Virus record (IMG/VR): IMGVR_UViG_2531839474_000013
Coordinates: 1 to 33,624 of that record
Length of the DNA: 33,624 nt
Origin: a virus
Taxonomy: Duplodnaviria; Heunggongvirae; Uroviricota; Caudoviricetes
Direction: 5' to 3' (one strand)
Shown here: piece by piece, positions 834-32,206 of the stretch
Position numbering within the stretch: the stretch's first letter is position 1
Layout: each line of letters opens with the position of its first letter
The notes under the pieces: model-generated
Seen by the model: the letters and a program-made list of their open reading frames with translations, nothing else
Databases searched by the model: none
Told to the model about the DNA's origin: nothing
Program-made: the position numbers and the translations under genes

Positions 834-3800
834 TGCATAATCCTCCGTCCCGACGTGATGACTGCATAATTGACACAACCCTGCTGTCGATCAGTTCCAC
901 CAGCCCCCTGGCTGACTGCGTATCTATCTCGCCATTGCTCCCTTTATTCTGAATACTGATGTGATACACGGGAGAATAAACAAATCCCCCGCCACCATTC
1001 ACATTGCCAATGGCTCTGACTCCAAGAGAGCCGTCCGCTGCCCGGGTCAGTGGCATGATAGCTTCAGGCCCTGCCTCGCCCATCAGCCCGGCACCTTTCG
1101 CAAAAGCAAAATACGTCGGGGTATCCACAATGGTGTTACTGTAAGCACTCAGATTTGCCGATGTATAAACACCACCTTTTGCGTTTGCCACTGCACCGGA
1201 AAGCCAGTCGCCGACCGTACCAAGCCATCCTCCGGCACCGGACATGCTTTTGGAAAGTGACTTCAGCCCGTTAACGATGGCAGCGTTCATCAGAATTTTT
1301 GAAACTTCCTGGAGAATTGAACTCCCCCAGTTTCTCCAGTCCACAACATTTCCGGCCAGTGCATCGGAAATATTTGATACCAGCCCGTCCATAGTGGAAA
1401 CGACAGCATCTGCCGCCTGCGAAGCATAATCAGTGGCACTGTCTGCCCAGTTCGTCAGCCCCTCCTGGAGTCCGGCATTCCAGTTACTGCGTAAAGCATC
1501 GGCCTTTGCATAATAATCCTGCTGATCGCTGAGACGCTCTTCCAGATACTTTTCATTCAGCGATTTTTCCTGTTTCCACAGGGCTTCTTCAATTTCTCCG
1601 GCCTGATACTGTCTCAGCAGCTCGTTATTTTTCTGCTCAAACGCCTGCCGGATACTCCACATTTCCTGGAGTCGTTCACGCATCCGTGAGCCTTCACCAT
1701 ATCCCAGCAACTGCGCATCGTTAGACGCCCGGGCACTGGCATTACTGTCCGCCAGGCTGCTTTCATAAGCAGCAAGCTGCTCACGAATCTTTTTCTGGTC
1801 AATGAGTGCCGCATTCTGTAAAAGCGTTTTTTTCTGCGCTTCTGACAGAGTTGATAATTCGCCCTGACTGACCTGATATTTCACCCTGGCCAGTTCAGTA
1901 TTCTGCCCTGCCAGTGCTATTTGTTCTTTTTGCTGTTTAATCAGCCGTTTATAAATATCTTCTGTTTTTTCCGCTTCGGTCTTTTTATGTGTTTTAGGTT
2001 TATTTGCCTGGTTATTTCGCCAGGCATCCAGTGAGTTATTGATATAATTCTGTCTGGCTGCCTGATACGCCTCTCCCACAAAGCCGAGATCATCCGCAGC
2101 ATAACCCAGGCGGGCACGCTCACGGGCTTCCCCCTTCAGGCGGGACAGAGCCAGTTCACGCTCGCTATTATTCAGCGCAGTCTGCTGTTTATCATCCAGA
2201 ATGGCCTGTGGCAGCCGTAATGGTACATTCACCAGCCCCTGACGCTGCTGAAGTAACTCATTACCAAGCCCGAGAAGACGATTAAACTCGGTATGCTGCC
2301 CATTCATGATCAACAGGGACTGATACGCTTTGTTTTGTTCTGCCGCCTGTTGACGGATTAACGCCACCCGTCGCTCCTCCAGCCCGGCAAGCACATCCTG
2401 AATGGATTGCGCTTTGCCCTGCATTTGAGTGAGGCGAGACTGTTCAACTGCCAGTTGATTTGTTGCTTCTGCAAGCCCTTCTGTGACAGTTTTTACCGAC
2501 GTCATGTGGTTAATCATAAAACCGTTATCGGTTGTCCAGCCCGGGTTTGCCAGCACATACTGATAGCCAGCAATTTTTTCCTGTAAGGATTTGATCTTAC
2601 TTTTCTGCTCGTCAATTAACCTGTTTTGCTCATCAAGTGCCTGCCGCGTCTTTTCCTCATTATCTGACGTTTCAGGAAGCGACATTGCCGACGTTTTCTG
2701 GCGAATTTCGTCGATTGTTGCGGCATACTGGCGTGCAGATTCTCTGGCCTGCTCCTGATTCTGATACATCGTGTACCAGGCCGTAGCCCCCAGCATGACA
2801 AGCCCCGGCACACCACCAACCAGCCCCAGTGCCCCACTTAACAGACGACTCCCCACTGACGTGACATTATTCAGCGTTGTCTGTGCTGCTGTTCTGGCCG
2901 CAATATTACGGGTAAGTGACGCCTGGGCAGCAGCCAGTTTCGATTCTGCGGCTGCCTGCCTTTCGGTACCGCGAGCAGCAGCAACCGCCTGTTGCGCACG
3001 ATAAACCGCCGCACGCGCCCTGGCTGTTGCTATCTGCGTCCCCCGGAGCTGCGCTTCCGCAAGAGCCACTTCGTTTCTGGCTGCAGTAATTAATCCGGCA
3101 GTTGCAGATCCAGCAGAAGACGCCATATTGCCAAAATATCGGGCTACCCCGACGGCAACCAGAGCACCGGCAGCGGTTGCCACGGTGTCAATATTGCCTG
3201 CAAGACCATTCAGCACCCCGGAGAGCGTCTTCGTCACTCCGCTTGCCTCGTTCGCACCACCAACCCAGGCCATAAAGGCGTTTTCAACTTTGGTTGCAGA
3301 GGATGAAACCGTATCAGGCATTGCTGCATATTCATCACGCAACGCCCCAAGCTGACTAATCAGTGCAGGAACAACCTTATCGGCGGTCAGTTTTCCGTTA
3401 TCCGCCATGGCCTTCAGATCCTTACGGGCAACGCCCATTCCCGCGGCCAGCGCACGAATAACACGATCACCGCTCTCATTCACGGCGTTAAATTCTTCAC
3501 CGCGCAGCACTCCCTGCGCCAGTGCCTGGCTGAACTGCGTGATCACCGAACTGGCTTCTGCTGTACTGGCACCGGATAATTTCAGGCCCGTGGAGATCGC
3601 CTCGGTGACTTTCAGTACCTCCTCAGAACTGTAGCCATACTCCCGCATGGAAGCTGCAGAGCGGGCAAAAAGGCTGGCGTTATCAGAAAACGCCGTTCCC
3701 GTTCTCTGGCTGATTGCCATTAATTCACGTTGTGATACCTGAAAATCATCACTGGACTGTGAAGCCTGCTTCAGACGGGCATTTACTGAATTCCACTCAT

Positions 3801-21402: not shown

Positions 21403-21621
21403 TCAGTTTTCCTTATATGGATTAATTTTGTTGTGTAGCGCCCTGAATGGTTCCCATACCATATCGATATACAGTTCAACAATCGGCTCAAATATTTTTC
21501 CGATTATCCAAACCAGAAACAGCAGGTTTATCGGTATCATCAACACGATAAACAGAATGAGAAACAGAAATTCTGTTGTTCTACTCTTTCGCGGATATTC
21601 TTTTCTGAATAATGCAGTCAT
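21403..21621 (-). CDS. hypothetical small membrane protein
   Basis: 72 aa with a hydrophobic core FLFLILFIVLMIPINLLFLVWIIG; AT-rich; ends 2 nt before the DUF551 start. Confidence 0.4.
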   Translation of the reverse strand: MTALFRKEYPRKSRTTEFLFLILFIVLMIPINLLFLVWIIGKIFEPIVELYIDMVWEPFRALHNKINPYKEN

Positions 21622-21748
21622 TTATTACCGCCCTTTCGGGCGGCCTCCTGATGTTTTGAGGGTGCAGGAATCCCTCCGGTTAAGGATTTAATAAAAATCA
21701 CTTCTGATTTAAATTTTCAGTGTTTTGTTGCCAGGGGATTTATCGCCT

Positions 21749-22246: not shown

Positions 22247-23134
22247 TCAGGCTGCCAGATCATCGTTTCTGATGGAAGCATAATAAGCTTTTTCTGCTTC
22301 TGCCGGAGGGATATGACCCAGCCTTCCCAGCAATCGTCGATTGTTATACCAGTCCACCCACGTGAGTGTGGCCAGTTCCACTTCTGCACGGTTTTTCCAG
22401 CTCTTACGGTGTATTACCTCCGCTTTGTAAAGACCATTGATGCTCTCCGCCATCGCGTTGTCATACGAGTCACCTGTACTCCCTGTTGATGCCAGCAGTT
22501 TTGCTTCTTTTAGTCGCTCCGTATAGGCCAGTGATACATACTGAGAACCTTTATCACTGTGATGGACTGTGCCGGACGGCCGACGGGCCCACAACGCCTG
22601 CTCCAGTGCATCCAGCACGAATGTCGTTTCCATAGACGATGAGACTCGCCACCCCACGATACATCCGGCAAACACATCAATGATGAACGCCACATAGACG
22701 AAGCCCTGCCATGTGCTGACGTAAGTAAAATCAGCCACCCACAGCTGGTCAGGACGTTCTGCCACGAACTGACGGTTTACGCGGTCGCCTGCGGAAACGG
22801 CTTTCCGGCTGACGGTAGTACGGACCTTTTTACCCCGGAGAACACCGGCAAGTCCCATAACCGCCATGAGGCGCGCCACTGTACATCTGGCCACCCTGAT
22901 ACCTTCGCGTAACAACTGGCGCCAGACTTTACGCACACCGTACACCTGATGATTTTCATCGTATACGCGCTGTATCTCTCTCTTCAGCCAGTCATCGCGC
23001 TGAGCACGGGCACTGCGTTTATCAGGATGATGTCGCTGTTGCTGACAGTGGTAATACGTTGACGGGGCAATATGCAGTTCACTGCATACCGGTCCGACCC
23101 CGTACTGCTCACGCAGCTTATCCAGCAGCGGCAT
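22247..23134 (-). CDS. IS3-family transposase OrfB (DDE catalytic domain)
   Basis: 295 aa with integrase-core-like motifs (ADFTYV, HSDKGSQY, DNAMAES); in the -1 frame relative to orfA. Confidence 0.9.
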   Translation of the reverse strand: MPLLDKLREQYGVGPVCSELHIAPSTYYHCQQQRHHPDKRSARAQRDDWLKREIQRVYDENHQVYGVRKVWRQLLREGIRVARCTVARLMAVMGLAGVLRGKKVRTTVSRKAVSAGDRVNRQFVAERPDQLWVADFTYVSTWQGFVYVAFIIDVFAGCIVGWRVSSSMETTFVLDALEQALWARRPSGTVHHSDKGSQYVSLAYTERLKEAKLLASTGSTGDSYDNAMAESINGLYKAEVIHRKSWKNRAEVELATLTWVDWYNNRRLLGRLGHIPPAEAEKAYYASIRNDDLAA

Positions 23135-23460
23135 TATTTTTTCCAGAGGCGGTCGAACTCCGCCTTCGCAAAATAAGCGGAAGCCTGGCGAAGGATATCG
23201 TTACTGCGGCGCAGTTCACGATTTTCACGTTCCAGCTCTTTCAGACGCTGACGTTCAGCGGTGGTGAGTCCACCATCACCACTCCCGGTATCCCGCTCAT
23301 GCTGACGAACCCACACACGCAGAGTCTCTGGTGTACAGCCAATCTTTGGGGCAATGGAACAAATTGCCGCCCATTGTGAGTCATATTCGCCCTGACTTTC
23401 CAGAACCATACGAACTGCCCGTTGACGGACCTCGGGGGAAAAACGTGTATTTTTAGTCAT
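23134..23460 (-). CDS. IS3-family transposase OrfA (HTH domain)
   Basis: 108 aa with HTH and leucine-zipper-like C-terminus; ends TGG AAA AAA TAA, where orfB continues in the -1 frame. Confidence 0.9.
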
Positions 23461-25995: not shown

Positions 25996-26497
25996 AATTC
26001 CATCCGACTTTTTGTTGATATTGCTGACGATACGCACGCTTGAAAGCAATGGCTTTTTCTATAAGCTCGTCAGTCTCACGTTCCACAACAGCTGGATCCG
26101 CAAAAAGCAGCCCGGACTCCACCACATCGCCATATTCTTTGTTTAACCCGGCGATCATGTACGTAATGCTTTTTCCGTCAGTAATTTCACAATACAACCT
26201 GAAATCGCTGATCCGGATAGCCTCCATAATTGCCGGAATCAGCGCCGTGAATTTTTCACGCTTATCCCTGGTGTCGATAGCTTTCCAGCGTTCGAATATC
26301 TTCACCCTGTTAACGCCCAGCGCCCGTTGATCAACCGCGCCATCATCAAACGTGACGCGATGAACATCGATGTTCGGGCGTTCTTTCAGAGCCCAGAATG
26401 CTTCCGTGATTAATATCGTCGCCTGCTCCTGCGTCATTCCTGGTCGGCATACCCAGGCATCCAGAGCCTCGCGAGCCTGCTCAGGAGTGAATATCAT
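25976..26497 (-). CDS. YdaT-like protein (Rac prophage ydaT position)
   Basis: 173 aa; REKFTALIPAIMEAIRISDFRLYCEITD resembles my memory of E. coli YdaT; follows the YdaS-like gene. Confidence 0.5.
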   Translation of the reverse strand: MIFTPEQAREALDAWVCRPGMTQEQATILITEAFWALKERPNIDVHRVTFDDGAVDQRALGVNRVKIFERWKAIDTRDKREKFTALIPAIMEAIRISDFRLYCEITDGKSITYMIAGLNKEYGDVVESGLLFADPAVVERETDELIEKAIAFKRAYRQQYQQKVGWNYESSFC

Positions 26498-26756
26498 TGT
26501 TCACCGCCAGTGATTCATTCGACATACACTTATTTTCACAAGGTAGTCCATCTGTTGGGTTGGGATAAATGTCAGGGCGAAGTTCGTGGGGAGTAATTTC
26601 CCAATTCAGTAATGCACAGAGTGACGACACGCGTTCAGCAGGAACCTTGCCTTTAATGAACCACTTGCCTACGGCCTGGGAGCTAATGCCAAAGTGTTTG
26701 CCAATGTCAGTTTTCGACATTTTTTTAGAGATCTTATCGTGAATTTGATTACTCAT
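26481..26756 (-). CDS. Cro/YdaS-like HTH regulator
   Basis: HTH (IGKHFGISSQAVGKWFIKG); divergent from the repressor gene; start placed at ATG 26756 (GGTGGAAAG upstream). Confidence 0.65.
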   Translation of the reverse strand: MSNQIHDKISKKMSKTDIGKHFGISSQAVGKWFIKGKVPAERVSSLCALLNWEITPHELRPDIYPNPTDGLPCENKCMSNESLAVNNDIHS

Positions 26757-26796
26757 ACTTTCCACCAGTACTATTAATTTCACCTACGCTACCATC

Positions 26797-26832
26797 AAAA
26801 ACTATAAGTTTCAACACAAAACCTATAGTTTT
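26797..26832. promoter_or_regulatory. operator region with two related palindromic 15-mers between the divergent regulator genes
   Basis: AAAAACTATAAGTTT (26797..26811) and AAAACCTATAGTTTT (26818..26832). A -10-like TATACT at 26857..26862 sits 7 nt before the repressor ATG, suggesting a leaderless mRNA. Confidence 0.5.
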
Positions 26833-26868
26833 GCTGATTGGTGAAACCTTTGGTTGTATACTTAAAAA

Positions 26869-27279
26869 ATGAGTAAAATAAACCATCCAATATTTGCTGA
26901 GAGAGTTCGGCAAGCAATGAGCGAACATGGCTGGTCGTTAGCCGGTCTGGCTAAAAAGGTTATGCTGTCCCATACCGCTGTGCGTAAGTGGGCAACAGGA
27001 GAAACCATTGCCAGCGGAGAAAGATTAAAAAGACTTGCCGCGGTAACAGGAAAACCAGAACATTGGTTTTTTATGCCGCTAAATGAACATTCAAAGGAAG
27101 AAGATGCACCACCACTAATCCAGCTTGACGACAAAGAAAAGGCGCTATTGTCCCTTTTTAATCAGTTGCCAGAAACGGAAAAGCTGAGACTAATCATGCA
27201 CACAAAAAGCATTCTTCATGAAATGGATCTTCTAAAAAACGATGTATACGACATAATCAATGATATTCAAAAACAATAA
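26869..27279 (+). CDS. prophage repressor, HTH-XRE, RacR/DicA-like (no S24 peptidase domain)
   Basis: 136 aa; N-terminal HTH; C-terminal EKALLSLFNQLPETEK resembles DicA; divergent from the Cro-like gene. Confidence 0.8.
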   Translation: MSKINHPIFAERVRQAMSEHGWSLAGLAKKVMLSHTAVRKWATGETIASGERLKRLAAVTGKPEHWFFMPLNEHSKEEDAPPLIQLDDKEKALLSLFNQLPETEKLRLIMHTKSILHEMDLLKNDVYDIINDIQKQ

Positions 27280-27350: not shown

Positions 27351-27379
27351 TTGACCAATAAAACCAATAGTTTTACCAT
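27351..27379 (+). promoter_or_regulatory. candidate repressor-controlled promoter with a third operator copy
   Basis: TTGACC, 17 nt, TACCAT; the spacer contains AAAACCAATAGTTTT (27360..27374), a 14/15 match to the operator at 26818..26832. Confidence 0.35.
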
Positions 27380-27596
27380 TCATTCCATCAACAACGAACC
27401 GCATCGTTGTCAGGCTAAAGTTCCGCTACCCCGGCGTTAAGGGGAAACAGAGGATTTCTCAGTGGGCGAAGTCAAACATCAGAATGGAAGGCATCAAGGG
27501 ATCAGCAAAGAAACAGCGATGGCGCTTTATATTGATATCAGCGCCATTGCCGGACAGGTAAGAGTTATCAGAGCGGTAACTAAGCGGTATGCGCCT

Positions 27597-27797
27597 TTAC
27601 TTCAGAAAGTCTCTGGTGAGTGCACCGAAGATATTGTCAACGATTTCGTCATCGAACTGCGAGGACTCATCTTCAGTTACAAGGTGACCACAATTTTTGC
27701 AGATGGTTCCCGCGAAACTGTCAGAGCCATGCGGTTTAAAGGATGTGTCAAAGACTTCGCCGCCACATTCTGGGCAAGAAAACTTGATTGTATTCAT
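27597..27797 (-). CDS. hypothetical zinc-ribbon protein (66 aa)
   Basis: CPECGG...CKNCG pair with acidic C-terminus; ATG 27797 with AGAGGAAA 7 nt upstream. A 118-aa plus-strand ORF overlaps it completely, so the assignment is uncertain. Confidence 0.45.
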   Translation of the reverse strand: MNTIKFSCPECGGEVFDTSFKPHGSDSFAGTICKNCGHLVTEDESSQFDDEIVDNIFGALTRDFLK

Positions 27798-27889
27798 AAC
27801 CAATTTCCTCTCGAGTAACAGATCCCTCAGAGGATACCACCTCGCCTGACGTGGTTAAAAGCAGGCAACGCTAACCACAAGGAGCCGAC

Positions 27890-28108
27890 ATGCAGAAACG
27901 AGAACCCGTCATCATCGCGCCAGACTATACCGATGATGAACTTTATGAGTGGATGCACCAGAAAATTAAGGCAGCGCAGGACCTGAAATGGGCCAATGAA
28001 GCCAGGGCTAAGCAGGCTGAAAATCTGTCCGCTCTGGAGCAGGATATCACCAGGCTGGAAAAAGCAGCGGCATTAAGCATTGCCAGAATGATTACATACC
28101 CGCGTTAA
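27890..28108 (+). CDS. hypothetical protein (72 aa)
   Basis: ATG with AAGGAG 6 nt upstream; helical, charged sequence. Confidence 0.5.
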   Translation: MQKREPVIIAPDYTDDELYEWMHQKIKAAQDLKWANEARAKQAENLSALEQDITRLEKAAALSIARMITYPR

Positions 28109-28130
28109 TAGCTAACCAACGAGGCTAATA

Positions 28131-28460
28131 ATGGAATTTAAAGATTTACCAATGCAATTCCAGGAAATGGCAGCGAATATAGTTCGTTCCCAACTGGCGA
28201 CTCTTGACCTGAGTACCGTAGAAAAAGAAACCATCGATACTATATCCGGTAACGTGCGTCGTGCCTTTATCGGTCTGTACGAAGAGAAGCAGCTCTCTGA
28301 TAACCAGGATTTACATGAAAAATACTTCCTGGATCTAATGGACATCATTAATAAGGGGTTTGGCTTGTTAATGGAAAAGAAAGGGATTCGGATAGAACCC
28401 CTTGAAAATTGCTTCGTAACAAGAAGCATCAATTCTTTTGATTCAAAACAAGAGAATTAA
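28131..28460 (+). CDS. hypothetical protein (109 aa)
   Basis: ATG with GAGG upstream; 3' end overlaps the convergent ORF by 32 nt. Confidence 0.45.
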   Translation: MEFKDLPMQFQEMAANIVRSQLATLDLSTVEKETIDTISGNVRRAFIGLYEEKQLSDNQDLHEKYFLDLMDIINKGFGLLMEKKGIRIEPLENCFVTRSINSFDSKQEN

Positions 28461-28704
28461 TTACAGATTTAACATGCTCTTTCTCATGATTGAAGCTCTC
28501 AGGGTTGAAAGTGCCCGGCTGAAGCGAGTCGATATAATCAACGAGATTCTTTCGTACCGTTTCATCTTTATTCATGGCAGATGCAAGGTATGAAATTGCT
28601 AACAATGTTATATCACTACGCGCCGCAGCATGCTGTAGTGTTTTATCAAAATCATTAATTTTCCGTATAAGAGAGTTAAGAGTTTCATTGACATCAAACC
28701 CCAT
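28429..28704 (-). CDS. hypothetical helical protein (91 aa)
   Basis: Start placed at ATG 28704 (AGGAGG 5-6 nt upstream). The track's 202-aa form starts at TTG and reads through the GC-rich structured region. Confidence 0.5.
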   Translation of the reverse strand: MGFDVNETLNSLIRKINDFDKTLQHAAARSDITLLAISYLASAMNKDETVRKNLVDYIDSLQPGTFNPESFNHEKEHVKSVINSLVLNQKN

Positions 28705-29265
28705 TTCATCCTCCTGAGGGTTAGTAATTAAGGAGTTCTCCACGGGTGAGGTGGAGTGCGTGCGCCGGACACGGGTGAGCATCCGGCACTGACAGTTTAC
28801 TGAAAGGATATCTCCCTGAAAAGTCAGGGCATAACGCGAAAGCGCACGGCGAAGTTGTTGGTTCATAGATAGCCTGTCGTTAAATTTTCGTCGACCGTGC
28901 GCTTCCGGTTGTGGCACTCCGCGAAATGGCGCGGCGGTAAGTATGGCGGGGTTATTCCTTCCCCGTTGAGGACACCGGGTTGTCAGGTTGACCATACGCT
29001 TAAGTGACAACCCCGCTGCAACGCCCTCTGTTATCAATTTTCTGGTGACGTTTGGCGGTATCAGTTTTACTCCGTGACTGCTCTGCCGCCCTTTTTAAAG
29101 TGAATTTTGTGATGCGGTGAATGCGGCTAAGCGCACGAGGAACAGTTAAAACCAAAAACAGTGTTATGGGTGGATTCTCTGTATCCGGCGTTAATTGTTA
29201 ACTGGTTAACGTCACCTGGAGGCACCAGGCACTGCATCACAAAATTCATTGTTGAGGACGCGATA

Positions 29266-29454
29266 ATGGAAACGTTATTACCAAACGTTAATACGTCTGA
29301 AGGTTGTTTTGAAATTGGTGTCACTATCAGTAACCTTGTATTTACTGAAGATGCCATTAACAAGAGAAAACACGAACGGGAGTTATTAAATAAAATATGC
29401 ATTCTTTCAATGCTGGCCCGTTTACGTCCGATACAAAAAGGATGCTGGCAATGA
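29266..29454 (+). CDS. hypothetical small protein (62 aa)
   Basis: ATG 29266 with GAGG upstream; stop overlaps the next start (ATGA). Confidence 0.4.
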   Translation: METLLPNVNTSEGCFEIGVTISNLVFTEDAINKRKHERELLNKICILSMLARLRPIQKGCWQ

Positions 29455-29642
29455 ATACAGCATTTGCACTTGTTCTGACATTTTTTCTTGTTTCCGAAGA
29501 GCCAGTTGATATTGCAGTCAGTGTTCACAGGACAATGCAGGAGTGTGTGACTGCAGCAACCGAACAGAAAATTCCCGGTAACTGTTACCCGGTCGATAAA
29601 GTTATTCACCAGGATAATAACGAAATCCCGGCAGGTCTTTAA
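29451..29642 (+). CDS. hypothetical small protein with N-terminal hydrophobic segment (63 aa)
   Basis: MNTAFALVLTFFLVSEEP...; AAGGA upstream; coupled to the preceding ORF. Confidence 0.4.
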   Translation: MNTAFALVLTFFLVSEEPVDIAVSVHRTMQECVTAATEQKIPGNCYPVDKVIHQDNNEIPAGL

Positions 29643-29734
29643 AACAGTTCCGTAATAAACATCCGATTTCATTCTTATATGCCAGAAATGGCAGGGATTT
29701 GTTCACCCTTAAATCTGTAATGAGGTAAAACAAA

Positions 29735-32206
29735 ATGAGTAAAGTCTTTATTTGCGCCGCCATTCCGGACGAACAGGCAATAAAGGAAGAAGGTGCAGTC
29801 GCTGTAGCCACTGCCATTGAAGCCGGTGATGAACGTCGCGCCCGCGCAAAATTTCACTGGCAATTCCTGGAACATTATCCGGCTGCTCAGGACTGCGCTT
29901 ATAAATTTATTATCTGCGAGGATAAACCTGGCATACCCCGCCCTGCCCTCGATTCATGGGATGCTGAATATATGCAGGAAAACCGCTGGGATGAGGATTC
30001 TGCTTCTTTTGTCCCGGTTGAGACTGAATCCGATCTGATGAACGTCACTTTTGACAAGCTGGCCCCTGAAGTACAGAACGCTGTCATGGTTAAGTTCGAC
30101 ACATGTGAAAACATCACCGTTGATATGGTGATTAGCGCGCAGGAATTGTTGCAGGAAGACATGGCAACATTCGACGGACATATCGTTGAAGCGTTGATGA
30201 AAATGCCAGAAGTTAACGCCATGTATCCGGAGCTTAAGCTGCATGCCATCGGGTGGGTTAAGCATAAATGTAAGCCTGGTGCCAAATGGCCCGAAATTCA
30301 GGCAGAGATGCGCATCTGGAAAAAACGTCGCGAAGGTGAACGCAAGGAAACCGGAAAATACACGTCTGTTGTTGATCTCGCCCGCGCCAGAGCCAATCAA
30401 CAGAACACTGAAAATTCAACAGGAAAAATCAGCCCGGTCATTGCTGCCACTCATCGCGAATACAAGCAGACATGGAAAACACTGGATGACGAACTGGCCT
30501 ACGCTCTCTGGCCTGGTGATGTGGATGCCGGAAACATTGACGGCAGCATCCATCGCTGGGCAAAAAATGAAGTTATCGACAACGACCGCGAAGACTGGAA
30601 GCGTATCTCGGCATCAATGCGCAAACAGCCTGATGCCCTTCGCTACGACCGCCAGACTATTTTTGGCCTTGTCCGTGAACGTCCGATCGACATTCACAAA
30701 GACCCCATAGCACTGAACAAATACATCACCGAATACCTGACGACAAAGGGCGTGTTTGAAAATGAAGAAACAAACCAGAGCACAACTGATACTCTCCAGT
30801 CACCAGAAACACAAACTGATGCAGTGGAAACGGAAATACCGGACAACCAAAAAAACGAAACCAAACCGGAAGCCGAACCATCTGTAGAGCGTGAAGGGCC
30901 GTTCTACTTCCTCTCCACAGACAAGGACAGAGAAAAATACGGTCGCGCAAACAAACTTTCTGGTCTGGATAAGGCACTGGCTGCAGGCGCCACTGAAATC
31001 ACAAAAGAAGAATATTTCGCCCGAAAAAACGGCACATACACAGGCTCACAACAAAATACAGATACAGCTGAAAAGACAGAACAACCAGAGCCGATAAAAG
31101 TTACCGCTGACGAAGTAAACAAAATTATGCAGGCAGCCAATATCAGCCAGCCTGACGCCGATAAGTTGCTTGCTGCATCACGTGGTGAATTTATTGAAGG
31201 GATTAGCGACCCGAATGATCCGAAATGGATTAAGGGGATCCAGACCCGCGATACTGTGAACCAGAACCAGCAAGAAACGGAACAGAACGACCAAAAAGCG
31301 GAACAAAACAGCCCAAATACGCAACAAAACGAGCCAGAAACGAAACAACCTGAACCAGTAGTGCAACAGGAACCGGAAAAAATCTGCACCGCCTGCGGTC
31401 AGACCGGCGGCGGCAACTGCCCTGATTGTGGCGCGGTGATGGGCGACGCAACATACCAGGAAACATTCGATGAAGAGAATCAGCCTGAAGTTCAGGAAAA
31501 TGATCCGGAGGAAATGGAAGGCACTGAACATCAACACAAGGAGAACACTGGCGGCAATCAGCATCACAATAGCGATAATGAAACTGGCGAGACGGCAGAT
31601 CACTCAATTAAGGCGAACGGTCATCAAAAAATCACATCCACCAGCAGAACGGGGAACCATCTAATGATCGACCTTGAAACCATGGGAAAAAATCCCGATG
31701 CCCCGATCATCTCAATAGGTGCAATATTTTTCGATCCGCAAACCGGAGATATGGGACCGGAATTTAGTAAGACTATCGATCTGGAAACTGCTGGCGGAGT
31801 CATTGATCGGGACACCATTAAATGGTGGCTTAAGCAATCACGCGAAGCGCAATCTGCCATTATGACCGATGAAATCCCGTTAGATGATGCACTGTTACAA
31901 TTGCGGGAATTTATCGACGAAAACTCCGGTGAATTTTTTGTTCAGGTCTGGGGAAATGGAGCCAACTTCGACAACACGATTTTGCGCCGTTCATACGAAC
32001 GGCAGGGGATCCCCTGCCCGTGGCGTTACTACAACGATCGCGATGTACGCACAATCGTTGAGCTGGGGAAAGCCATAGACTTCGATGCCAGAACGGCTAT
32101 TCCATTCGAAGGTGAGCGCCATAATGCACTTGATGACGCCCGTTACCAGGCAAAATACGTTTCAGTTATCTGGCAAAAACTGATCCCGAGTCAGGCTGAT
32201 TTTTAA
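29735..32206 (+). CDS. large phage exonuclease: N-terminal region of unknown function, low-complexity linker with C4 zinc ribbon, C-terminal DEDDh 3'-5' exonuclease domain
   Basis: 823 aa. C-terminal motifs IDLETMG (Exo I), [12 protein letters not shown] (Exo II), HNALDDARY (Exo III). Linker is Q/E/N/T-rich with [16 protein letters not shown]. Lies in the exo position upstream of xis and int. Confidence 0.8.

Follow-up and report, generated by a model that had tools for sequence, protein, structure and literature searches.

DicF and a conserved upstream RNA domain in a GC-rich segment of a prophage genome

The window analyzed here is the 33,624-nt IMG/VR record IMGVR_UViG_2531839474_000013, a virus of the Caudoviricetes, and the segment under study is located at positions 28705–29265. 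This segment is almost certainly the untranslated central part of a Qin-type dicBF operon, the early-left (pL-like) operon of a lambdoid prophage. An Rfam match, the alignment with Escherichia coli K-12 and the Pfam and PHROG assignments of the surrounding genes together place it inside the operon, as an internal and untranslated part. The initial annotation, made from the sequence alone, described the segment as GC-rich and poor in open reading frames (ORFs), located upstream of an exonuclease operon, and proposed a structured noncoding RNA or a regulatory or recombination site. The observation was confirmed and the interpretation was supported in part. The segment does encode a structured RNA, the small RNA (sRNA) DicF identified by Rfam, together with structured precursor and spacer RNA; however, it is internal to the same early-left operon as the exonuclease gene, and it is not new. 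DicF is a cell-division-inhibiting sRNA whose locus is among the oldest known bacterial sRNA loci, first described in 1989–1990. Finding DicF again, at a locus present in most E. coli genomes, matters little by itself; the sole possibly new item is one RNA domain just upstream of it, which we named M2.

DicF and its operon

An Rfam scan of 27500–30500 (E ≤ 1) gave two matches, DicF and a sub-threshold match to STnc100. The covariance match to DicF (RF00039) covers 29040–29091 on the plus strand with 76.7 bits (gathering score, 48; E = 1.7e-16; model positions 1–52 of 52); a scan of the whole window at gathering thresholds recovered DicF again. The covariance-model search for known RNA families, which was suggested in the initial annotation, is therefore positive. 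In the alignment, 28722–29300 is ∼97% identical to the ydfC-dicF-dicB segment of the Qin prophage of K-12 MG1655, and 28922–29118 is 100% identical, all of dicF included. The K-12 dicF annotation (b1574), moved to the window through this alignment, defines one 53-nt sRNA at 29039–29091 (+) that is identical to the K-12 sequence. The DicF Rho-independent terminator is formed by the hairpin GGCGG...CTGCCGCC (29054–29090); it has one stem of 29054–60 and 29084–90, one U-run at 29092–96 and a stability of −15.9 kcal/mol. In the fold of 29036–29098, residues 29036–29053 are unpaired and are followed by the terminator stem and UUUUU. The score, the seed-plus-terminator architecture and the dicB context all agree with membership of the DicF family. 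Megablast of 28400–29500 found matches in 4745 of the 5426 complete E. coli genomes, and the annotation under these matches is dicB and DUF1482/ydfD.

The order of the operon is promoter, ydfC, DicF, dicB, ydfD and exonuclease. The dicB gene, which went unrecognized in the initial annotation, is located directly downstream of the segment (29266–29454, plus strand, 62 aa; Pfam DicB PF05358, 124.8 bits, E = 1e-36), and dicB is named at this place in the RefSeq annotation of near-identical genomes. Its ribosome-binding region starts at 29251, with GAGGA at 29254–58. The ydfD gene (29451–29642; DUF1482, 81.6 bits) follows. On the upstream side, ydfC is one 72-aa ORF (phrog_1744), and one divergent helix-turn-helix (HTH) repressor/Cro pair is present at 26481–27279; the repressor (26869–27279) is an HTH_3 protein with 30% identity to DicA. 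The promoter scan identified one promoter-like site, TTGACC-17-TACCAT, at 27351–27379 (+), which aligns with the TTGACC block of the dicA-ydfA intergenic region of K-12. By position, this site is the homologue of the DicA-repressed dicBp of Qin and the presumed start of the transcript that would cross the region. Downstream of it, one conserved block (AGUUCCGCUACCCCGGCGUUAAGGGGAAA, 27419–27447, plus strand), which contains the hairpin CCCC-GGCGUUAA-GGGG, is common to the dicBp leader of K-12; both the promoter block and the leader hairpin are common to K-12, although the repressors are just 30% identical.

The window therefore resembles K-12 Qin in its identical DicF, in the ∼97% identity that extends from the ydfC 3′ untranslated region (UTR) through dicF and the spacer into dicB, and in the ydfC-dicF-dicB-ydfD order with the same promoter block and leader hairpin. 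Different from Qin, it has a diverged repressor, lacks ydfA and ydfB, and carries one inserted 595-bp cassette; its exonuclease gene is intact (823 aa), whereas Qin has the ydfE pseudogene and IS2 in place of it.

Structure and processing of the DicF precursor

The segment is strongly structured. The minimum free energy (MFE) of 28720–29270 is −210.9 kcal/mol, compared to −179.7 ± 6.5 kcal/mol for 100 shuffles (z = −4.78), none of which folded as well. All the hairpins and repeats listed in the initial annotation were located, with coordinates shifted by 0–2 nt, and the GC fraction is 0.52–0.55 in the region versus 0.34–0.45 in the flanks. The repeat search recovered the listed repeats and, in addition, one unlisted 19-nt inverted repeat (29101–29119 and 29230–29248, 95% complementary).

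The first module is the leader module U1 (28722–28836, plus strand), which is ∼97% identical to K-12 and contains three hairpins. Two of them, with stems 28738–43/28751–56 and 28764–69/28782–87, show the repeated ACGGGUGAG in their loops, and the direct repeat ACGGGTGAG is found at 28742–28750 and 28771–28779. The third hairpin is CCCTGA-aaag-TCAGGG (CCCUGA-AAAG-UCAGGG in the RNA) at 28814–28829. Among other prophages, U1 is either kept or swapped as one block. The third hairpin (CCCUGAAAAGUCAGGG) starts like lambda boxB (GCCCUGAAAAAGGGC); no boxA (CGCUCUUA-like) was found ahead of it, and no N-like family was found among the operon ORFs by Pfam and PHROG. The region shares with lambda tL1/nutL the early-left position, with the immunity region on one side and the kil/recombination genes on the other, as well as one operon-internal terminator. 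Different from lambda, no N gene and no boxA beside the hairpin were found, and the loop and stem lengths of the hairpin are unlike those of boxB.

U1 is followed by one long imperfect helix (28837–28907, plus strand), in which the arms 28837–56 and 28886–28907 pair GAAAGCGCACGG-CGAAG... with ...UCG-A-CCGUGCGCUUCC. It includes the inverted arms GCGCACGG (28842–28849) and CCGTGCGC (28895–28902) and was recovered as inverted repeat I3 (13 nt, 92% complementary). In other prophages the helix is retained, with differing interiors. The direct repeat AAGCGCACG has one copy in its 5′ arm (28840–28848) and one copy at 29129–29137. One 24-nt imperfect direct repeat is present at 28828–28851 and 28913–28936 (GGCAUAACGCGAAAGCGCACGGCG and GGCACUCCGCGAAAUGGCGCGGCG); in the IMG/VR variant L016 (1625–1759, minus strand) the whole helix between the two copies is lost, which suggests that the 5′ arm of the helix is a partial duplicate of the 5′ part of M2. 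The M2 domain (28908–29022) comes next, then one A/U-rich linker, CGCCCUCUGUUAUCAA|UU (29023–29038, plus strand), which is unpaired in the folds, and then DicF.

In K-12, the operon transcript starts at DicA-repressed dicBp, and DicF is of polycistronic origin (PMC10448788). The 190-nt DicF species is RNase III-dependent and accumulates on RNase E inactivation, whereas the 53-nt species is RNase E-dependent (PMC10448788). One 72-nt DicF is the RNase III product of read-through RNA (PMC9438474, PMC6582626). Both ydfABC-dicF and ydfABC-dicF-dicB-ydfD transcripts exist in K-12, and the two types therefore point to partial read-through of the DicF terminator. The K-12 DicF seed pairs with ftsZ.

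We carried the published RNA lengths over to the window by arithmetic. Counted 190 nt back from the DicF 3′ end, the RNase III-dependent 5′ end falls at ∼28903–28907, in the 3′ arm of the GCGCACGG...CCGTGCGC helix. The RNase E-dependent 5′ end of the 53-nt species is at 29039, at the 3′ end of the unpaired linker, and its 3′ end is at 29091–96, at the terminator. The RNase III-dependent 3′ end of the 72-nt species falls at ∼29110 (29039 + 71), in the middle of the 5′ arm of the helix 29101–19/29230–48. By this arithmetic, each RNase III end falls within one of the two long helices, and the end made by RNase E falls within the unpaired linker. From these distances we infer that helix 28837–28907 is the RNase III substrate that gives the 190-nt 5′ end, and that the 72-nt 3′ end comes from RNase III cleavage in the closing helix 29101–19/29230–48.

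On this basis, transcription would start from the repressor-controlled promoter near 27351–27379 and run rightward through ydfC into the segment. Most polymerases would halt at the intrinsic terminator (29054–29096), and some would continue into dicB, ydfD and the exonuclease gene. RNase III would cut in helix 28837–28907 to release the 190-nt species, composed of M2, linker and DicF, from which an RNase E cut at 29038/29039 in the A/U-rich linker would yield the mature 53-nt DicF. In read-through RNA, RNase III cleavage in helix 29101–19/29230–48 would give the 72-nt DicF and part it from the dicB mRNA. With Hfq, DicF would base-pair with the ftsZ, xylR, pykA and manX mRNAs, leading to a division block and metabolic change.

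What we observed directly is the identity to K-12, the match to Rfam and the helices with their conservation. The transcripts, RNases and targets come from the K-12 literature, and the same processing is probable in this prophage. Several points weigh against this account. The RNase III cuts are placed on the two helices by distance only. The immunity repressor has only 30% identity with DicA, and ydfA and ydfB are missing. The cassette between ydfC and the DicF region has one plus-strand terminator-like hairpin (28410–28428) and one convergent antisense gene; less transcript than in K-12, or an altered amount of it, could thus arrive at DicF and dicB, and the cassette may change the DicF and DicB output of this prophage. 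The Prokaryotic Genome Annotation Pipeline (PGAP) leaves dicF unannotated in near-identical genomes and calls one 145-aa minus-strand coding sequence (CDS) over 28429–28866, which covers part of the precursor and is discussed below.

The M2 domain and its possible roles

M2 (28908–29022, plus strand) is 115 nt in length and makes up the 5′ part of the 190-nt precursor of DicF. It is a four-way junction with one pseudoknot. Helix P1 pairs 28908–15 with 29015–22; P2, the hairpin CCGCG-aaatgg-CGCGG at 28919–28934, pairs 28919–23 with 28930–34; P3 pairs 28935–38 with 28974–77 and carries P4 (28947–51 with 28961–65) on its top; P5 pairs 28978–85 with 29005–12 and has one 19-nt loop. In the 6-bp pseudoknot, 28941–46 (GUAUGG) of the P3 internal loop pairs with 28992–97 (CCAUAC) of the P5 loop. 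The MFE fold of 28908–29024 alone reproduces the junction.

In distant blastn searches against phage genomes the region proved to be a mosaic, and the block ∼28908–29030 was found on its own in Stx2c phages, Ayreon, 2H10, Salmonella F1055 and phages and plasmids of the phage P1 type. Pattern scans identified M2 in 120 IMG/VR stretches and in 17 loci of GTDB genomes, which belong to Escherichia, Shigella, Citrobacter, Trabulsiella, Erwinia tracheiphila, Izhakiella and Serratia symbiotica; prophages of Citrobacter, Erwinia and Serratia also have M2 on its own. One covariance model was built from 69 variants, and covariation was assessed on a model-guided alignment of 77 sequences, in which 95.9% of the cells are paired. 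Compensatory double changes occur in 14 of the 36 pairs, compared to 5.3 ± 1.6 after column shuffling (none of 500 as high) and 1–4 in slid controls; these figures are to be read with the facts that the patterns could collect a homologue only if its P5 loop or J2/3 linker was conserved, that the alignment was fitted to the model and that the effective sequence number is 1.51. The pseudoknot also covaries (UA 68, UG 4 and CG 3), and helix P1 holds U-G and G-U pairs that are valid only in plus-strand RNA. All 88 loci that were searched with the model have exactly one M2 copy. M2 is a genuine and well-supported conserved RNA fold, and it is widespread in Enterobacterales prophages and phage P1.

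No Rfam family matched M2 in the Rfam scans. We found no description of M2 as a module in the literature on dicF-like regions, DicF antitermination and the ban operon, although older literature on dicF, put RNA and the P1 genome may hold one. Several possible relatives were rejected. The best other match in the pR-side part of the prophage (21504–21642, minus strand, 13 bits) is not a second copy of M2, because P2 and P4 are deleted in it. ARAGORN identified no tRNA or tmRNA gene anywhere in the window, and the Rfam scans gave no tRNA match; M2 resembles tRNA only in the four-helix topology and the 7–8 bp closing stem. The Pas sRNAs are located in the late region and are unrelated to M2. Other loop-loop contacts, between the P2 and P5 loops or between the P4 loop UCCUU and GAGGA, are unconserved in variants of the phage P1 type or the L026 type. 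The exact 9-nt repeat GTTGAGGAC is present in the M2 junction after P4 (28965–28973) and in the dicB Shine-Dalgarno region (29251–29259), and each of these copies could base-pair with the P4 loop, which is rich in pyrimidines (UUAUUCCUU); M2 of the phage P1 type has not kept the pairing.

Phage P1 holds M2 in the Pban leader (AF234173.1, 68472–68573), where part of it is labelled 'dicF-like region'. It is a full M2, scoring 95.9 bits with the model built here, and like the M2 of the window it precedes one intrinsic terminator in an early repressor-controlled operon, immediately downstream of the Pban promoters. Different from the window, it has neither the DicF seed nor a DicF Rfam match, its terminator is GCCCAUC-UUCG-GGUGGGC, it is located ∼45 nt from the promoter (more than 1.5 kb in the window), and it is followed by tRNA, tci and ban instead of dicB.

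What accompanies M2 in nearly all these contexts is a terminator. An intrinsic terminator is found within 170 nt after M2 in 107 of the 111 distinct contexts, compared to 34 of the 555 control windows from the same loci; the 4 misses are near-misses or decayed copies. The stretch that separates M2 from the terminator, in the window the DicF seed, differs by lineage, as does the terminator interior, and only 1 of 15 diverse M2 loci passed the DicF gathering score. In all inspected contexts the terminator is operon-internal: it precedes dicB and the exonuclease gene in the window, tRNAs, tci and ban in phage P1, and rdgC in F1055. Our working view, still unproven, is that M2 acts in cis and is coupled to the terminator after it. 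As to how lambdoid prophages without N and the ban operon of phage P1 transcribe past a strong early terminator, the conserved M2 fold before that terminator is a concrete candidate.

One possible role, which we consider conceivable but on the improbable side, is that of a passive or protective precursor domain. M2 would then be a stable fold that determines where RNase III and RNase E cut and that modulates how fast the downstream sRNA matures or how stable it is, with no effect on transcription and no role in trans. The edges of M2 fit such a role: helix P1 starts 1–5 nt past the RNase III end (∼28903–28907 versus 28908), and the RNase E site is 16 nt past helix P1. The accumulation of the 190-nt species on RNase E inactivation is consistent with it as well, and M2 moves together with a family of units that end in a terminator and vary in their 'seed' segments. 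However, a pseudoknotted four-way junction whose invariant loops are conserved from Escherichia to Erwinia and Serratia is more than a simple spacer would require. In addition, no long upstream helix like the RNase III stem is evident in the sequence of phage P1, where M2 is only ∼45 nt from the promoter, and the plasmid-borne 53-nt dicF is functional without M2 (PMC6582626). M2 as a trans-acting or protein-binding RNA, or as something else, takes up the remainder of our expectation; the precursor-scaffold and the trans-acting roles were rated equally open.

By analogy with HK022 put and the Bacillus EAR element, M2 might also be a factor-independent antiterminator or anti-pausing RNA, a role that we regard as rather unlikely. 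M2, folded on the nascent RNA, would modify the polymerase and let a fraction of polymerases pass the DicF-type terminator, an analogue of tL1, so that dicB, the recombination genes and int/xis would be reached in phages without N; such a role would be compatible with the dicBF assignment of the segment. It would suit a complex conserved four-way junction and pseudoknot, whose unpaired nucleotides are nearly invariant. M2 is always on the operon strand, with one operon-internal terminator next to it at the frequency given above. The variable M2-terminator spacing and terminator interior fit one element acting on the polymerase and argue against a classical overlapping attenuator. In phage P1, M2 is located past the C1-controlled Pban promoters and ahead of one strong terminator before 2.6 kb of tRNA, tci and ban sequence. 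No N-like protein was recognized by PHROG and Pfam in the pL operons examined, although N proteins are so divergent that such scans leave the absence unproven.

The likeness to HK022 put is one of function only: both are structured early-operon RNAs of lambdoid phages without N, located upstream of terminators. HK022 put promotes terminator read-through by binding to the zinc-binding domain of the RNAP β′ subunit. Neither in sequence nor by covariance model does M2 resemble putL or putR of HK022. In blastn (word size 7), 28700–29270 gave chance matches only against the whole HK022 genome, and the M2 model gave nothing above 11.5 bits on it. The architectures differ too, put being two stem-loops of ∼70 nt with one triplex and M2 one 115-nt four-way junction with one pseudoknot. 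Furthermore, put is present in both early operons, whereas M2 occurs once per locus, without a partner on the pR side. In Shigella Stx phages and Rac-SA53, DicF and the spacer are kept with M2 truncated or absent, which also speaks against antitermination by M2. That M2 is a new class of phage cis-regulatory RNA, acting on the polymerase or on the terminator after it and so setting early-operon transcription past the DicF-type terminator, is a doubtful proposal. If it were true, M2 would be an N-independent antitermination device of the put/EAR kind, and DicF would be one by-product sRNA of the switch. The classical attenuator was rejected: by inspection only, we found no conserved complementarity between M2 and the 5′ strand of the terminator, and the spacing ranges from ∼15 to 100 nt with unrelated inserts.

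Some further features were observed around M2. Directly 5′ of M2, in non-Qin contexts only (L006, L008, L139, L142, L144, L145 and L133), one boxA-like (A)GUGCUCUC(U/A) is located ∼10–20 nt from helix P1. Farther upstream in Erwinia, Izhakiella and F1055, one T-arm-like GGCAGGUUCAAUUCCUGCC is present, at which ARAGORN found no tRNA. In L097 (1171–1359, plus strand) and L061 (4732–4920, minus strand), isrK and the C4 antisense RNA, both above the Rfam gathering scores, follow M2 after ∼300 nt and on its strand, at the place that dicB occupies in the window; in L006 and L140, isrK and C4 are more than 2 kb upstream of M2 on the opposite strand. In loci of the Stx2c, F1055 and Erwinia types, one short ORF (36–43 aa) begins inside the terminator hairpin after M2 and would encode the peptide MF[YC]R...FTQQ.RASP.DGLITQSTR (L008 2690–2812, L144 4713–4823, L006 ∼2680–2760). 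Nucleotide conservation remains strong past this ORF (ACAGAAAAGAGCAUCACCGGGCGACGGGCUCAUAACCCAAUCCACCCGG), and the feature may be a peptide or an RNA element; the ORF was set aside as nucleotide conservation, being just 36–43 aa in length, inconsistent in its ends and absent from the window.

The dicF-dicB spacer, the cassette and neighboring elements

The spacer element between dicF and dicB (29097–29250, plus strand) is closed by the helix 29101–19/29230–48, 19–21 bp in length, which corresponds to inverted repeat I1. The closing helix encloses the hairpin GCGUUAAUU...GGUUAACGU (29187–29213), the hairpin CCTGG-aggca-CCAGG (29215–29229; CCUGG-AGGCA-CCAGG in the RNA) and one hypervariable central hairpin. 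The fold of 29099–29248 has a z-score of −5.55 against shuffles. RNAalifold on 24 spacer variants kept all the helices; the changes are wobble-compatible only, and the central hairpin is hypervariable.

The initial annotation considered that the palindromes of this part, including the palindrome-rich GTTAATTGTTAACTGGTTAAC (29189–29209), might bind proteins or serve as one recombination site. The short palindromes at 29189–29229 (GTTAAC repeats and CCTGG/CCAGG) are indeed perfect, and the region is a mosaic junction zone whose modules are swapped between phages. However, the same palindromes are arms of conserved RNA hairpins within the 21-bp closing helix, with G-U pairs that exist only in the plus-strand transcript; repeated spacing of the operator type is absent, and both the immunity repressor gene and the promoter are more than 1.3 kb upstream. 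A role as DNA, either operator or recombination site, is thus very unlikely.

The sub-threshold STnc100 match (RF02076) covers 29089–29298 over the full 206-position model and reaches 31.4 bits, short of the gathering score of 47 (E = 2.5e-4); it is missing from the gathering-threshold scan of the window, and the spacer is probably a distant relative of STnc100, not a member. The spacer shares with STnc100 the outer helix and the CCUGG-AGGCA-CCAGG hairpin, and both are prophage-borne. Different from STnc100, the spacer is operon-internal and ends at the dicB ribosome-binding site, rather than being an independent sRNA with a terminator of its own. STnc100 and PasD have been joined as one prophage sRNA family (Zhu, Shabalina and Storz, bioRxiv 2026), and PasD/STnc100 loci are reported to neighbor Q, lysis and Fels-1 genes, unlike the spacer. 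The spacer is also independently mobile, being found in P7 (NC_050152.1, 72453–72568) and D6 (NC_050154.1, 6915–7035). Its 5′ and 3′ parts are conserved, and in some prophages it is located ahead of genes other than dicB.

Upstream of U1, 28127–28721 is one 595-bp two-gene cassette in the ydfC 3′ UTR, which appears as a clean gap in the alignment with K-12 Qin. It encodes one 109-aa ORF (28131–28460, plus strand; phrog_6937, 4e-67) and one convergent antisense 91-aa ORF (28429–28704, minus strand) with an AGGAGG-N5-ATG start at 28704; the latter has no family match in Pfam or PHROG. The terminator scan identified terminator-like hairpins on both strands between the two ORFs, at 28381–28428.

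The minus-strand frame of the 91-aa ORF is open over 28429–29037, and the 202-aa ORF with a TTG start that was listed in the initial annotation exists at these positions. The statement that no convincing ATG-initiated ORF is present needs some revision, in that one ATG at 28866 opens a minus-strand ORF of 145 aa, although this ORF very probably starts too far upstream. PGAP annotates this 145-aa CDS over the equivalent of 28429–28866 (WP_261205548.1 and WP_103745425.1; strains E2 and TUM1880; 3030–3467 in both L001 and L002). The coding alternative is that the stretch encodes a protein on the minus strand, either the 145-aa hypothetical protein or the 202-aa product. Homology to K-12 starts at ∼28722; K-12 has neither such an ORF nor the cassette, and the extension past 28704 is non-coding there. 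The strong start at 28704 is inside the cassette, and the N-terminal extension beyond it is Arg-rich, of low complexity and overlaps the RNA helices. Neither Pfam nor PHROG gave a match for the minus-strand frame. Across homologues, as the initial annotation had proposed to check, the stems are conserved and the reading frame is not: indels are not multiples of three, pair changes are compensatory, and the M2 core varies from 113 to 120 nt in non-triplet steps, which excludes a conserved reading frame. No conserved ORF with synonymous variation was found among these homologues, and K-12 has no CDS there. A protein-coding role of the segment is therefore extremely improbable. Both the 202-aa ORF and the 145-aa CDS are very probably over-extensions of the 91-aa antisense gene, and the PGAP call is probably one start-site error combined with one missed noncoding RNA. 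Automated annotation of near-identical genomes thus misses dicF and puts a spurious CDS over its precursor.

Just upstream of ydfC, the module CACCUCGCCUGACGUGGUUAAAAGCAGGC (27838–27866, plus strand) forms one 5-bp stem with one 13-nt loop. In many other prophages it immediately precedes the RNase III helix or M2, and Serratia and Izhakiella have related versions; the module is possibly one more conserved RNA element of the leader. At the downstream end of the operon, the exonuclease (29735–32206, plus strand, 823 aa) has one C-terminal Rv2179c-like 3′-5′ exonuclease domain (residues 641–813) as its sole recognized domain; the N-terminal 640 residues are acidic and of low complexity, without a family match. 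At 23063–23179 on the minus strand, one ALIL pseudoknot (RF01497, 120.9 bits), the frameshift element of an IS3-family insertion sequence, was identified; an insertion sequence is therefore present in the pR-side part of the prophage.

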